Below, piece by piece: positions 10,562 through 17,628 of a stretch of 64,000 bases of DNA. The notes beneath the pieces were generated by a model, which was not told the DNA's origin, ran no database searches, and saw only the letters and a list, made by a program, of their open reading frames with translations. Made by a program: the position numbers and the translations under genes. The stretch lies in assembly GCF_024502345.1 (NCBI RefSeq), contig NZ_JALDNN010000001.1; one strand, given 5' to 3'. The DNA is from Escherichia coli (GTDB lineage: Bacteria; Pseudomonadota; Gammaproteobacteria; Enterobacterales; Enterobacteriaceae). How positions within the stretch are numbered: the stretch's first letter is position 1; each line of letters starts with the position of its first letter.

Positions 10562-10608
10562 TGGTGGCCCCTGCTGGACTTGAACCAGCGACCAAGCGAT
10601 TATGAGTC
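10562..10608 (-). other. displaced 3' fragment of tRNA-Ile(CAU) (att remnant, chromosomal-type T-arm)
   Basis: 47 nt whose reverse complement is the 3' part of K-12 ileX as I recall it (T-stem GCTGG/CCAGC, ...CCACCA); shares a 19-nt core with the intact tRNA at 17581-17599. Confidence 0.85.
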
Positions 10609-10734
10609 ATAAAATCGGCATGCTTCTAATCGTTCGCTATTGACGCTTATTGTATTTTTAATTGTCTATAATCAATCAGTTATGATGTTGTTTTTGTTTC
10701 TGATTGGTTGTCTCGTCTCCTCATTGTACTATCG

Positions 10735-10780
10735 TTACCTGACCCATTACCTGACCCAAAATGGGCATCGGGTCAGGTAA
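10735..10780. repeat. putative integrase arm-type sites (11-mer ttacctgaccc x2 direct + 1 inverted)
   Basis: ttacctgacccattacctgaccca (10735-10758) recurs identically at 17473-17496; inverted copy at 10770-10780. Confidence 0.55.
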
Positions 10781-10805
10781 CGCTTATCCTCAGAAAGGTA
10801 ACCTC

Positions 10806-11474
10806 ATGGCCGCTAATCTTACCGAGACTGCTATACGCGGATTGAAGACAAAAAGCACGTCGTACTACGTGTGGAGCAACAGTGCTCAGCGTGGTACCGG
10901 CAGGCTTGGCGTTAAGGTTCAGCCTTCAGGCAGCAAAGTTTTTTATTTCCGTTACTACGTTGAGAAAGGGAAGAAAGAGAAATTCATTCAGTTGGGCATC
11001 TGGCCTGAGATGAAACTGGTGACGGCCAATGAGCTGGCGAAAAAATATGGAGCCTGGCTTGTTGAAGGAAAAGAGCCGCAGCAAGAGCTTGAGCAACAGC
11101 GCCTGGCCGAACAGCACATCATGCAGATCCATCGCTCGCAGGGCTCGTTTAAAGAGCTGGTACATGGCTACGTTAACAAGATGAAGCTCGACAATAAGCG
11201 GACCTGGGCCGATGTTCTGAAGCGTCTTGAAAAAGAGTGCTATTCAGTCATTCCTCGAGAGACCAAAGCGAAGGATGTCACGCCATTACAGATCAAAACC
11301 ATCCTCTCAGGCATTATCCAGCGAGATGCGGTGGTCCATGCGAACCGAATTCGTTCCTACCTGATGGCGGCATTCAACTATGGGCTTAAAGCCGATAACG
11401 ATCCGATGAATACCAGCGTGGGCATTACGTTCGGGCTTGAAGTTAATCCGGTATCGGCCATAGCGTTGGCTTAA
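10806..11474 (+). pseudogene. truncated tyrosine integrase (P4-like N-terminal arm-binding/SAM-like part only)
   Basis: ATG at 10806 with RBS; 222 aa then stop; full P4-type integrases are ~400 aa with a C-terminal catalytic domain that is missing here; family assignment from memory. Confidence 0.7.
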
Positions 11475-11556
11475 TCCCTTGTTCTTGTAGCTGGTCAGCA
11501 GTTGCATGAATTTGTTGTATTGTGATCGCCATGATTATAATCCTGAAATTTATATA

Positions 11557-11620
11557 ATTATCTTTGTATTATGTTGTATGTATAATAATAATACTACATA
11601 CAACATAATACAAAGATAAT
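11557..11620. repeat. perfect 26-bp inverted repeat with 12-nt spacer
   Basis: attatctttgtattatgttgtatgta / tacatacaacataatacaaagataat verified base by base. Confidence 0.9.
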
Positions 11621-11893
11621 GTAAAAAAACCCCAAACTATTTTGAGGTAGTTGATTAATATGTGTTTGGAGTTATTAAATTATTCCCTGATAGGCCGGTA
11701 AGGATCCTGAGACGTCGTCCATCCCATCAAGGGCTCAAGGTTCTGCGGGCGTGACGGTTCGAACTCCAGAACCCAGTGTCGGGATCGTGGCGCGGACGTG
11801 GCGGCCGCGCGCGCGGGTCGGTAAATGATGGCGGTTGGCACATCATGAGAACGAAGGTTGGTTCCGGGAATTGTTGGTGCGAATGGCGGGCGG

Positions 11894-12598
11894 TTATGTC
11901 CTTGCATCATCTTTCGAATCTCCTTTCTTCTGTTTATTGTTGGCTGCATTTGCGTCTGGCTTGGACTTTGAGTGCTCGATGTCGTCCAGCCGCTCGATCT
12001 TGCGTGAGTTCGCCATGATCGTTTCTGCAGCCGACCGAAGCGCTTCAGGGTCGTTGTCGCTGCTGATGTCCGAACGCATCGCAATCGTGACTTTAGCTAC
12101 GGCATGCATCACCTGTTCTGCGTCATTGCCGTTCAACTGGCCATCCTCAAGTCCATCAACAAGCAGATCAAGAACGCGTCGGAACGCTTCGACAACTGGC
12201 GCGCTGCCGACAACGGCAAGCCTGTGGCTGATGACCCTGAGTTCATCAATGAGCGCAGAATCATGACATTCACGCTCCACGATTTCAGCAACCTTTTCGA
12301 TGACGCGCATATATGTGTCATGCTTTTGTTGAAAAAGAAGAACTTGCCCTTCTTTTCTTAACTCAAGCTCAGTCTGGCGATTGAGGAGCACAGCTGTCAG
12401 ATAGATAGTGACAGCTGCACCCAGGAACACTAGGATCATCTCTTGGGCAAAAGGAACGTTTTCACCAACAAAGTATAAGCCGCGGTAGGCTGCGTAACCT
12501 ACGCCCACTAAAACAATGGAAATTACCAGGTAGGCGACGTCCCTGCCGCGAAAGCTCGTCTTTACCGGTGGCTTCATGGGTCGGCCTTTCTTAATCAT
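11894..12598 (-). CDS. hypothetical inner-membrane protein (2 predicted TM helices + ~150-aa cytoplasmic domain)
   Basis: ATG at 12598 preceded by GGAG; track ORF starts at TTG 12610; hydrophobic segments VAYLVISIVLVGVGYAAY and MILVFLGAAVTIYLTAVLL; no family recognised. Confidence 0.6.
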   Translation of the reverse strand: MIKKGRPMKPPVKTSFRGRDVAYLVISIVLVGVGYAAYRGLYFVGENVPFAQEMILVFLGAAVTIYLTAVLLNRQTELELRKEGQVLLFQQKHDTYMRVIEKVAEIVERECHDSALIDELRVISHRLAVVGSAPVVEAFRRVLDLLVDGLEDGQLNGNDAEQVMHAVAKVTIAMRSDISSDNDPEALRSAAETIMANSRKIERLDDIEHSKSKPDANAANNKQKKGDSKDDART

Positions 12599-12662
12599 TT
12601 CTAACTCCAATTAACTAACAACTTTGACAAGCATAGAGCTTGAGCGTGCATATACTATCAAA

Positions 12663-15267: not shown

Positions 15268-15354
15268 AGACGAAATAACCCACCTTCCCACACTACCTGC
15301 ATATGCGCCAGCCCGTAAACCGGCTGGCGTTGCGCATTTATGGAGTCCCTGAAT

Positions 15355-15718
15355 ATGAGCACAATTGAATCCGGGGTATTAACCGATCATACTGATGTCA
15401 TTTGCTCCACCAGCATTGAGCGCATTGTTACCGGACGTAATGCAGCGTTGAGCCTGACAGAAATCCTTATCCATCAACTTAATGATATTTCTGCACTCAC
15501 CGACAGTATTGGCGGGGGCAAAGCGAATGAATGGGGAGTACGGCAATATCGTTACGACTGCTGGCTGATGGAGAAGCCAGAAACGGCAATGAAAGCGATC
15601 ACCCGCAATATTGATCGTGGTATCTGGAAAAACCTGATGAAGAAATCGGGGATGCTGAGCCTGATGGATGCTCAGGCCCGTGATGAGTGGTACAAAAACC
15701 TTGAAGGGGAGGATATTC
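15355..15718 (+). pseudogene. N-terminal part of a 277-aa hypothetical cytoplasmic protein gene interrupted by IS3
   Basis: ATG at 15355 with GGAG RBS; reading frame runs into IS3 at 15719. Confidence 0.65.
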
Positions 15719-15748
15719 TGATCCTACCCACGTAATATGGACACAGAC

Positions 15749-16615
15749 CTAAGCGAGGTTCTGGTTTTCAAATTGTTCCGGACTGAGGCCGCCACACCAA
15801 CTGTGCCGCCGCCACCGATTGTAATCACATTCGATATAATTAAACACCGTTGCCCGCATTATTTCCCGGCTGATAAAGTGTTCTCCATGGATACATTCCA
15901 CTTTCAGCGAATGAAAGAAGCTTTCCACGCAGGCATTATCGTAGCAGCAACCTTTTGCGCTCATACTTCCACGCAGATTATGCCGCTTCAGTTGCGCCTG
16001 ATAATCTGCTGAACAGTACTGGCCTCCACGGTCCGTGTGAACGATAACGTTCCGGGGCCTCTTACGCCGCCACAGCGCCATCTGCAGGGCATCGCAGGCC
16101 AGTTGCGCCGTCATGCGTGGCGACATTGACCAGCCAATAACGGCACGTGACCACAGGTCAATGACCACTGCCAGATACAGCCAGCCTTCATCTGTACGTA
16201 AGTACGTGATGTCTCCTGCCCACTTCTGGTTCGGGCCACTGGCGTAAAAATCCTGCTCCAACAGATTTTCTGACACAGGCAGGCCGTGTGCGCGGTAGCT
16301 GACCGGGCTGAACTTCCGGGAGGCCTTTGCCCTCAGTCCCTGACGGCGCAGGCTTGCCGCCACGGTTTTTACGTTAAAGGGGTAACCCTGAGCACGCAGT
16401 TCATCCGTCAGGCGTGGGGCACCGTAACGCTGTTTTGACCGGGTAAAAGCCGCGAGGACAACGCTGTCGCAGTGTTGGCGGAACTGCTGACGCGTGCTTA
16501 TCCTTGTCCGCCGCTGACACCACGTATACCAGCCGCTGCGGGCCACCCGGAGCACGCGGCACATTGCTTTGATGCTGAACTCAGCCTGATGTTTTTCAAT
16601 AAAGACATACTTCAT
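15749..16615 (-). CDS. insF: IS3 transposase OrfB (InsF)
   Basis: 288 aa, DDE transposase, matches IS3 InsF. Confidence 0.93.
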
Positions 16616-16911
16616 TTCAGGCGCTTCGCGAAGTATGTCGCGGCCTTTTGGAGGATAGCCAGCTCTTCATCCCGTTCTGCCAGCTGGCGTTTGAGACGTG
16701 CAATCTCGGTAGACATCTCCAGTTCACGTTCAGAAGACGTCTGCTGATTTTGCTGTTTACTGCGCCAGTTGTAGAGCTGTGATTCATACAGGCTGAGTTC
16801 ACGGGCTGCGGCAGTAACACCGATGCGTTCAGCAAGCTTCAGGGCTTCACTGCGAAATTCAGGCGAATGCTGTTTACGGGGTTTTTTACTGGTTGATACT
16901 GTTTTTGTCAT
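16612..16911 (-). CDS. insE: IS3 OrfA (InsE)
   Basis: [19 protein letters not shown]..., 99 aa. Confidence 0.93.
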
Positions 16912-16980
16912 GTGAGTCACCTCTGACTGAGAGTTTACTCACTTAGCCGCGTGTCCACTATTGCTGGGTAAGATCAATTC

Positions 16981-17450
16981 CGGCTGTCAGCGAAGCCAAC
17001 ATTCTGAGCACATTTGAGCAACTGCATCAGAGCAAAGGCGAGGTGTTTGAGCGTGGCGTGATTAACGTGTTTAAAGGTCTGAGCTGGGATTTTAAGAGTA
17101 ACAGCCCGTGTAAGTTCGGGAAAAAGATCATCGTGATAGGGCTGGTGAAACATGACCGATGGGGATTTGGGCTTAACTGGGGCTGGCAACGTGATCGTCT
17201 GGCGGATCTTGAACGCATGCTGATACTGCTTGATGGCAAACCCGTTCCCGACAACCGCGCTGACATTACCCGTAGGCTGGGCGATCATATTCATGAGAAC
17301 AGGCACAGTAACCGTTACGAGGATGAGATGCTTGTGATTAAGTATTTTCAGAAGGGAACGGCACACATCGTATTCAAGCGACCTGAGCTGGTCGATAAGC
17401 TGAACGACATCATCGCCCGGCACTATCCGGGAGCCCTGGCTGCGATGTGA
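16981..17450 (+). pseudogene. C-terminal part of the IS3-interrupted 277-aa gene
   Basis: in-frame continuation of 15355..15718 once IS3 + 4-bp duplication is removed (junction ...EDI|PAVSEAN...). Confidence 0.65.
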
Positions 17451-17552
17451 AGAGGGCTGGAAATAAAATTCTTACCTGACCCATTACCTGACCCAATCTA
17501 CGTCCAAAGAACAAGGAGTTAGATGATTTCTCATCTAACTCCTTGTTTTATT

Positions 17553-17628
17553 TGGTGGCCCCTCCCCGGCTTGAACGGGGGACCAAGCGATTATGAGTCG
17601 CCTGCTCTAACCACTGAGCTAAGGGGCC
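17553..17628 (-). tRNA. ileX: tRNA-Ile(CAU) (ileX-type, lysidine tRNA) with island-derived T-arm
   Basis: 76 nt incl. CCA; anticodon loop CTCATAA; acceptor/D/anticodon arms match K-12 ileX as recalled; T-stem CCCCG/CGGGG differs. Confidence 0.9.

Follow-up and report, generated by a model that had tools for sequence, protein, structure and literature searches.

The window analysed here is a 64,000-nucleotide stretch of an Escherichia coli genome (assembly GCF_024502345.1, contig NZ_JALDNN010000001.1). In K-12 MG1655, mug, the tRNA gene ileX and nfeF (formerly yqjH) are contiguous, as an initial annotation made from the letters of the window had stated. In the window, a complete ileX gene (17553-17628) is separated from a 47-nt copy of its 3' part (10562-10608) by 6,944 bp of inserted DNA (10609-17552), a decayed island at this tRNA gene. 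Its two ends are built from the following features.

10562-10608, minus strand: displaced native 3' part of ileX (tRNA positions 30-76), 100% identical to K-12 ileX and its downstream flank
10609-10805, plus strand: P arm and leader of int, carrying 12-mers, nearly identical in strains 730V1 and ECL27977
10806-11474, plus strand: int', truncated tyrosine integrase open reading frame (ORF) of 222 residues, identified by tblastn and Pfam
17451-17552, plus strand: P' arm, with two direct 12-mers and a 17-bp hairpin
17553-17628, minus strand: regenerated hybrid tRNA-Ile2(CAU), recognised by alignment to K-12 ileX

The insertion and the hybrid tRNA gene

ARAGORN finds a single tRNA in the region, with anticodon CAT, on the minus strand at 17553-17628. 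Rfam supports it at 64.9 bits and returned nothing else except a sub-threshold antisense match, which we take as chance. Compared by local BLAST, the K-12 mug-nfeF interval, which does not contain the 7 kb, aligns to the window in two blocks, one ending at 10608 and the other starting at about 17522, that overlap solely in the duplicated part of the tRNA. The 19-mer GACCAAGCGATTATGAGTC is present in exactly two copies in the window, at 10590-10608 and 17581-17599 (0 of 100 shuffles), and the repeat around it reaches 57 nt at 82% identity (10552-10608 against 17543-17599). The initial annotation had read this pair as the core of left and right attachment sites (attL and attR), and the reading holds, with relatives sharing the same architecture of the ends. 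K-12 and 4,955 of 5,426 complete E. coli genomes have the target uninterrupted, and it is occupied in about 9%; in Shiga-toxin-producing E. coli, ileX is already on record as a site where island modules and integrative elements insert (PMC5539235, PMC7545054, PMC7067040). The inserted DNA had also been described as visibly AT-rich, which the numbers do not bear out. Its GC content is 49.8% against 51.8% for the window, a value equalled or undercut by 22 of 229 equal-sized windows, and it is noticeably lower in just two parts, the plasmid fragment described below (44.8%) and the P arm with int' (47.5%).

Matching the ileX 3' end as predicted, the fragment at 10562-10608 forms the attachment core on the integrase side and is still joined to nfeF and to the native ileX terminator hairpin (detected at 10526-10553, fold of -21.5 kcal/mol, identical to K-12). 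It had been described as a displaced copy. Displaced it is, but what moved is the native sequence, and the divergent, island-derived copy sits in the complete tRNA gene. The working tRNA is a hybrid of a native 5' part (17600-17628), the shared core (17581-17599) and an island-supplied 3' part that comprises the T arm and the 3' strand of the acceptor (17553-17580). It differs from K-12 ileX at seven positions, all in the T arm. The T stem reads CCCCG/CGGGG against the native GCTGG/CCAGC, with three pairs altered on both sides, plus one T-loop base. The cloverleaf is kept, and the fold of the hybrid resembles that of the native tRNA. In an alignment of 14 rows (10 distinct), made up of the K-12 gene and 13 regenerated tRNAs of the island family, both sides vary in four of the five T-stem pairs and 100% of T-stem cells are paired. 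Because the fragment beside nfeF is native and the T arm of the complete gene is divergent, strand exchange took place 5' of position 49. The crossover would have fallen within the 19-nt block, positions 30-48, at a point that we infer; this block runs from the final two bases on the 5' side of the anticodon stem, through the anticodon loop and the 3' side of that stem, to the variable loop.

Attachment-site arms and the truncated integrase

An identical 24-bp element had been reported just inside each boundary. The first copy is where it was placed (10735-10758), and the second lies at 17472-17495 rather than 17473-17496. The element consists of two tandem copies of the 12-mer TTACCTGACCCA. 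Direct copies occupy 10735-10746 and 10747-10758 on the P arm, where an inverted copy with one mismatch lies at 10769-10780, and 17472-17483 and 17484-17495 on the P' arm. The window thus holds five sites against 0.15 expected, a number reached by 0 of 100 shuffles. The P'-arm hairpin (17510-17547, 17 bp, -26.3 kcal/mol, z = -7.5) abuts the 3' end of the tRNA.

Scanning one genome per species, we found the exact 24-mer at 22 loci, in 11 genera of Enterobacterales and in Vibrionaceae (Enterobacter, E. albertii, Escherichia sp., Siccibacter, Tenebrionibacter, Brenneria, [Erwinia], Phytobacter, Kluyvera, Citrobacter, Kosakonia, Vibrio, Salinivibrio and two metagenome bins). On the integrase side, nine of ten loci place the tRNA core at -145 relative to the 24-mer, the Brenneria locus having one base changed in its core, and the inverted 12-mer lies at +34 in seven of the ten and at +33 in Kluyvera sichuanensis. 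The start of int, where callable, is at +67 or +71, and in four loci the longest ORF runs from +26. Of the tRNA-side loci, the eight with the exact 19-mer have the core at +109 or +110. At the Vibrionaceae loci the 24-mer is exact amid unrelated surrounding sequence, which marks it as the footprint of constraint.

The Salinivibrio and Vibrio loci (L021, L027, L029 and L037) have the exact 24-mer at the usual distance from a tRNA(CAU) gene, next to a gene and a hairpin unrelated to the enterobacterial ones; no exact integrase-side 24-mer was found in these genomes. In L022, from Siccibacter colletis, and L024, from Escherichia sp. ESNIH1, the P' arm and the 3' half of tRNA-Ile are followed by non-tRNA DNA that begins right after ...ATTATGAG, two bases before the usual end of the core. 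To judge by this junction, it looks as if another element, of a different kind, is stacked at that tRNA gene.

The attP sites of lambda and P4 carry short repeated arm sites at set distances from the core, and their integrases bind them with a separate N-terminal domain. The repeats in both arms of the window, at set core distances, resemble this arrangement; the motif TTACCTGACCCA differs, as does a layout of two direct copies and one inverted copy on one arm and two direct copies on the other. Neither motif nor layout was found in the searchable literature. From position and spacing, the 12-mers are very probably arm-type sites for the N-terminal domain of the integrase, and we infer that core and 12-mers together define an attP of about 300 bp.

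Residues 1-219 of Int' match a 438-residue integrase at 98.6% identity up to 11462, after which the frame reads ALA and stops (tblastn). In the full-length relative, Pfam places Arm-DNA-bind_3 at 5-97 (PF13356, E=6e-12), Phage_int_M at 115-195 and Phage_integrase at 252-391. The exact 222-residue product has Arm-DNA-bind_3 (PF13356) and a weak Phage_int_M on record, and its N-terminal Arm-DNA-bind_3 domain places it in the arm-binding class. Cut after residue 219 of 438, it has lost the catalytic domain. The integrase is dead and the island cannot move on its own; as both attachment sites are intact, excision by a related integrase acting in trans would in principle still be feasible. Together with the P arm, int' makes up the left 0.85 kb, which is 93-96% identical to full-length E. 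coli integrase genes among the matches listed. At loci in other genera the integrase shows 92-99% identity to its E. coli counterpart, indicating recent spread. The exact Int' is present on at least 24 public contigs, from one NCBI draft genome and several European Nucleotide Archive (ENA) metagenome assemblies, at least one of them from human gut. The gene order from ebgA through nfeF to int' is constant in all eight places shown, and the two contigs that extend beyond int' run into plasmid genes, one of them reaching the start of IS5.

Integration into a tRNA gene is expected to yield a regenerated tRNA gene and a displaced fragment, and class A of the Islander collection comprises islands whose attP is centred on the anticodon (Hudson, Lau & Williams 2015, PMC4383910). 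The window island resembles this class in that a complete, regenerated tRNA gene and its cognate 3' fragment, downstream and in the same orientation, mark the ends, and in that the element provides the 3' part of the gene, with a block of identity that begins two bases 5' of the anticodon loop. Unlike class A islands, it has no PF00589 catalytic domain of a tyrosine integrase within the interval, so an Islander-type search that requires PF00589 would miss it.

Contents and decay of the island

One third of the island is insertion sequence (IS) DNA and one quarter is plasmid-derived. The initial annotation was right about a truncated integrase, two IS elements (IS5 and IS3) and a set of genes then unassigned; the plasmid fragment, about a quarter of the island, had been overlooked. 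Genes it had thought unassignable can be placed in a backbone of the CP4-57 type (a YfjS/YafY lipoprotein and DUF4942). No recognised virulence or resistance gene is carried by the window island. Its contents are as follows.

11461-13091, minus strand: 1.63-kb Rep_3/RepM plasmid fragment of Moraxellaceae type, from plasmid identity and the RepM model
11461-11532, within the plasmid fragment: first 24 codons of a DNA-binding protein gene
11680-11910, within the plasmid fragment: NDUS4-like ORF of 76 residues
11894-12598, within the plasmid fragment: ORF of 234 residues without family
12663-13091, within the plasmid fragment: C-terminal part of repM, cut by IS5
13092-14286, plus strand: IS5, 1,195 bp, with terminal inverted repeats, 97.8% identical to the annotated IS5 of locus L005
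14287-15235, plus strand: backbone remnant of 0.95 kb, 99.7% identical to the aspV island of ATCC 8739
14411-14863, in the backbone remnant: YfjS/YafY-family lipoprotein gene
14860-15267: ORF after the lipoprotein gene, its 3' end replaced at a deletion junction
15340-17450, plus strand: DUF4942 gene, last of the backbone, split by IS3 (coding 15340-15718 and 16981-17450)
15719-16976, minus strand: IS3, 1,258 bp, 99.8% identical to the annotated IS3 of locus L004

The plasmid fragment adjoins the truncated integrase and is followed by IS5. It is 99.6% identical to pNDM-MCR10 of Enterobacter asburiae, 99.8% to a plasmid of Moraxella osloensis, 97.3% to Psychrobacter plasmids and 99.0-99.5% to Acinetobacter plasmids. 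The RepM model NF038290 matches over profile positions 170-293 of 304 (E=1.4e-30), at 106.7 bits against a cut-off of 250; the initiator is incomplete, and the fragment does not amount to a RepM replicon. IS5 and IS3 both have terminal inverted repeats, a transposase and a flanking duplication or target motif. CTAA stands on both sides of IS5 (13088-13091 and 14287-14290) and the two flanks differ in origin, which fits recombination between two IS5 copies. On the evidence of these flanks, the plasmid fragment probably arrived by that route.

No function for the 234-residue plasmid ORF emerged from PADLOC, NCBIfam, Pfam or PHROGs. The sub-block that holds it, 11909-12598, is by itself 99.1% identical in many large plasmids of Klebsiella, Salmonella, Enterobacter and Citrobacter, a distribution as if it were a discrete mobile module; inspection by eye of the borders of the plasmid sub-blocks gave no convincing XerC/D (pdif-like) site. 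The very AT-rich DNA of the plasmid fragment also contains a perfect 26-nt inverted repeat (11557-11582 and 11595-11620) around a 12-nt spacer.

What is left of the backbone is the YfjS/YafY lipoprotein gene and its surroundings, with DUF4942 as the last gene before the attachment site. At 15235/15236 the remnant abuts sequence that corresponds, in strain 730V1, to the 3' end of the DUF957 gene, so the intervening backbone, including YeeU/CbtA, RadC and antirestriction genes, has been deleted. The YeeU/CbtA pair, RadC, antirestriction, DUF932 and GTPase genes are all absent among the ORFs of the window and present in relatives; comparison of the sequences attributes their loss to the deletions at 11461 and 15235. 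IS3 is flanked by a 4-bp duplication, ATTC (15715-18 and 16977-80), and excising it in silico with one ATTC copy restores a DUF4942 frame of 282 residues, the product of which has 91% amino acid identity to that of 730V1 over 276 residues. An exact-sequence look-up of the repaired protein came back empty. Its homologues, for which PF13708 is on record, reach 95% identity at best and are common in E. coli and in further Enterobacteriaceae; this search brought up no intact parent for the right end. The two small backbone ORFs drew no match from PADLOC or NCBIfam and, from PHROGs, only matches to families of unknown function.

Elsewhere in the window, at 41500-41574 and ~57896, comparison with K-12 showed the ygiL-yqiGHI fimbrial operon (K-12 3,185,070-3,191,708) to be absent and the ygiS-mqsA-mqsR segment of K-12 to have no match above 300 bp. 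The cca-bacA intergenic stretch (29922-30076) has no K-12 alignment at megablast sensitivity.

Relatives, origin and meaning

A search for intact islands, suggested in the initial annotation, was rewarded in other E. coli, where relatives of 23-56 kb occupy ileX or ileY. Strain 730V1 (E. coli O19:H7) has a ~56-kb island at ileX, between nfeF and mug, and ECL27977 a ~23-kb island at ileY, adjoining ypjC. The two share one order: tRNA fragment, int, backbone, DUF4942, regenerated tRNA-Ile. Their P' arms and that of the window have the 24-mer, the hairpin and a TTTTATTT run in common. A junction of DUF4942, P' arm and tRNA-Ile that belongs to the family of the window island was found in 464 genomes, at ileX or ileY. 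Queried as a whole, the island is covered to at least 80% in no complete E. coli genome, and the top-ranked matches are copies of IS5 and IS3. The ileX island of 730V1 (L005/L008) includes a dha regulon like that of Klebsiella, with glycerol dehydratase, 1,3-propanediol dehydrogenase and dihydroxyacetone kinase, alongside a module for Cd/Pb transport and a set of methyltransferase and helicase genes.

CP4-57 is a cryptic prophage of E. coli K-12, with CP4-6 and CP4-44 as paralogues. The backbone of the intact relatives is like that of CP4-57 (ssrA) and consists of int, an AlpA-like helix-turn-helix gene, YfjI, YfjJ, cargo, a YfjP-like GTPase, a YfjR-like regulator, a YfjS lipoprotein, DUF932, antirestriction, RadC, DUF987 and a YeeU/CbtA-type pair. 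From this set the window retains the YfjS-like gene, most of the rest having been deleted. The full-length relative of the integrase is 22.8% identical to IntA, and the target is tRNA-Ile2, not ssrA. Moreover, int adjoins the displaced fragment in the window, whereas intA of CP4-57 adjoins the regenerated ssrA; the former follows from a target gene that is opposite to int in orientation. The ileX elements and LAA modules of Shiga-toxin-producing E. coli (PMC5539235, PMC7545054, PMC7067040) occupy the same chromosomal site. They are described as large and as carrying virulence genes.

Insertion, boundaries, hybrid tRNA, conserved geometry and decay events are established, and we read the locus as, in all likelihood, the immobile remnant of a tRNA-Ile2-specific island with a CP4-57-type backbone, inserted into ileX by an arm-binding tyrosine integrase. 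The attP of the element would have carried a copy of tRNA positions 30-76. The integrase N-terminal domain would have bound the arm-type 12-mers, two direct and one inverted on the int side and two direct on the tRNA side, and strand exchange would have occurred inside the 19-nt block of anticodon loop, 3' anticodon stem and variable loop. This would have rebuilt the tRNA gene from its native 5' part and the T arm, acceptor strand and hairpin of the element, leaving the native 3' part displaced by 6.9 kb, beside nfeF. Decay followed. An illegitimate join at 11461/11462 cost the island the catalytic half of the integrase and all that lay between it and an IS5. Another deletion, at 15235/15236, took the segment from DUF4339/IrmA to DUF957, with the YeeU/CbtA toxin-antitoxin pair, and IS3 split the last gene, DUF4942.

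Some observations weigh against this reading. The hairpin of the island is followed in the direction of the tRNA by a weak U tract, which makes its role as the tRNA terminator uncertain, and we found no intact parent with the exact T arm of the window island. The two ends are also unequal. The P arm and int are 93-96% identical to E. coli relatives among those listed, the DUF4942 end and P' arm 77-86%, and the ends may therefore stem from different lineages of the family. It is possible, if unlikely, that the present attL and attR derive from separate islands of one family, which integrated in succession at ileX to form a tandem array until a deletion merged one island's left end with the other's right end. 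The blocks do differ in ancestry, 14287-15235 being 99.7% identical to an aspV island, and the DUF4942 end matches ileX and ileY islands at 77-86%, yet its protein matches widespread proteins at 95% when compared irrespective of insertion site. Tandem arrangements are further suggested by L022 and L024, with their P' arm and tRNA 3' half continuing into DNA that is not tRNA. However, with only two copies of the tRNA core in the window, no internal fragment survives, and the mosaic is explained with no tandem stage if related islands at different tRNA sites underwent homologous recombination.

That so much of the segment is IS or plasmid DNA might point to IS and plasmid events, such as IS5/IS3 transposition or a plasmid cointegrate, in place of site-specific integration. 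We consider this very improbable, for the outer boundaries are a 47-nt tRNA duplication and conserved arms at fixed distances, not IS ends, and intact relatives without these IS copies have the same boundaries. Least credible of all is that the segment is ancestral and was lost in K-12 and most other E. coli. Its absence from K-12 is the sole point in favour of that view, and exact loss would need an intact native ileX to have been recreated in 4,955 genomes; the segment also has attachment-site architecture, an integrase and relatives in other genera.

As the remnant of a tRNA-Ile2-specific island, the locus carries little weight alone. It is one more decayed island at a tRNA hot spot, with unusually well-preserved attachment sites. 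The more particular points are modest: a clean attP layout, a position of int reversed relative to CP4-57 and compensatory T-arm variants. A decoy role for Int', by binding the predicted TTACCTGACCCA sites, seems a long shot. It draws on the retained arm-binding and central domains and on the intact leader with arm-type sites, and the spread of Int' over at least 24 contigs is explained equally well by clonal descent. If Int' did act in this way, the remnant might be locked in place, or integration or excision of related islands at ileX and ileY might be disturbed. A piece of a Moraxellaceae-type plasmid is now seen to be resident in an E. coli chromosome. As by-products, the comparison yields a naturally occurring set of tRNA T arms that islands have supplied and that vary by compensatory changes, together with a sharp attP layout for a tRNA-Ile2-specific integrase subfamily, a core and five 12-mers at fixed spacing, conserved from Escherichia to Vibrio.

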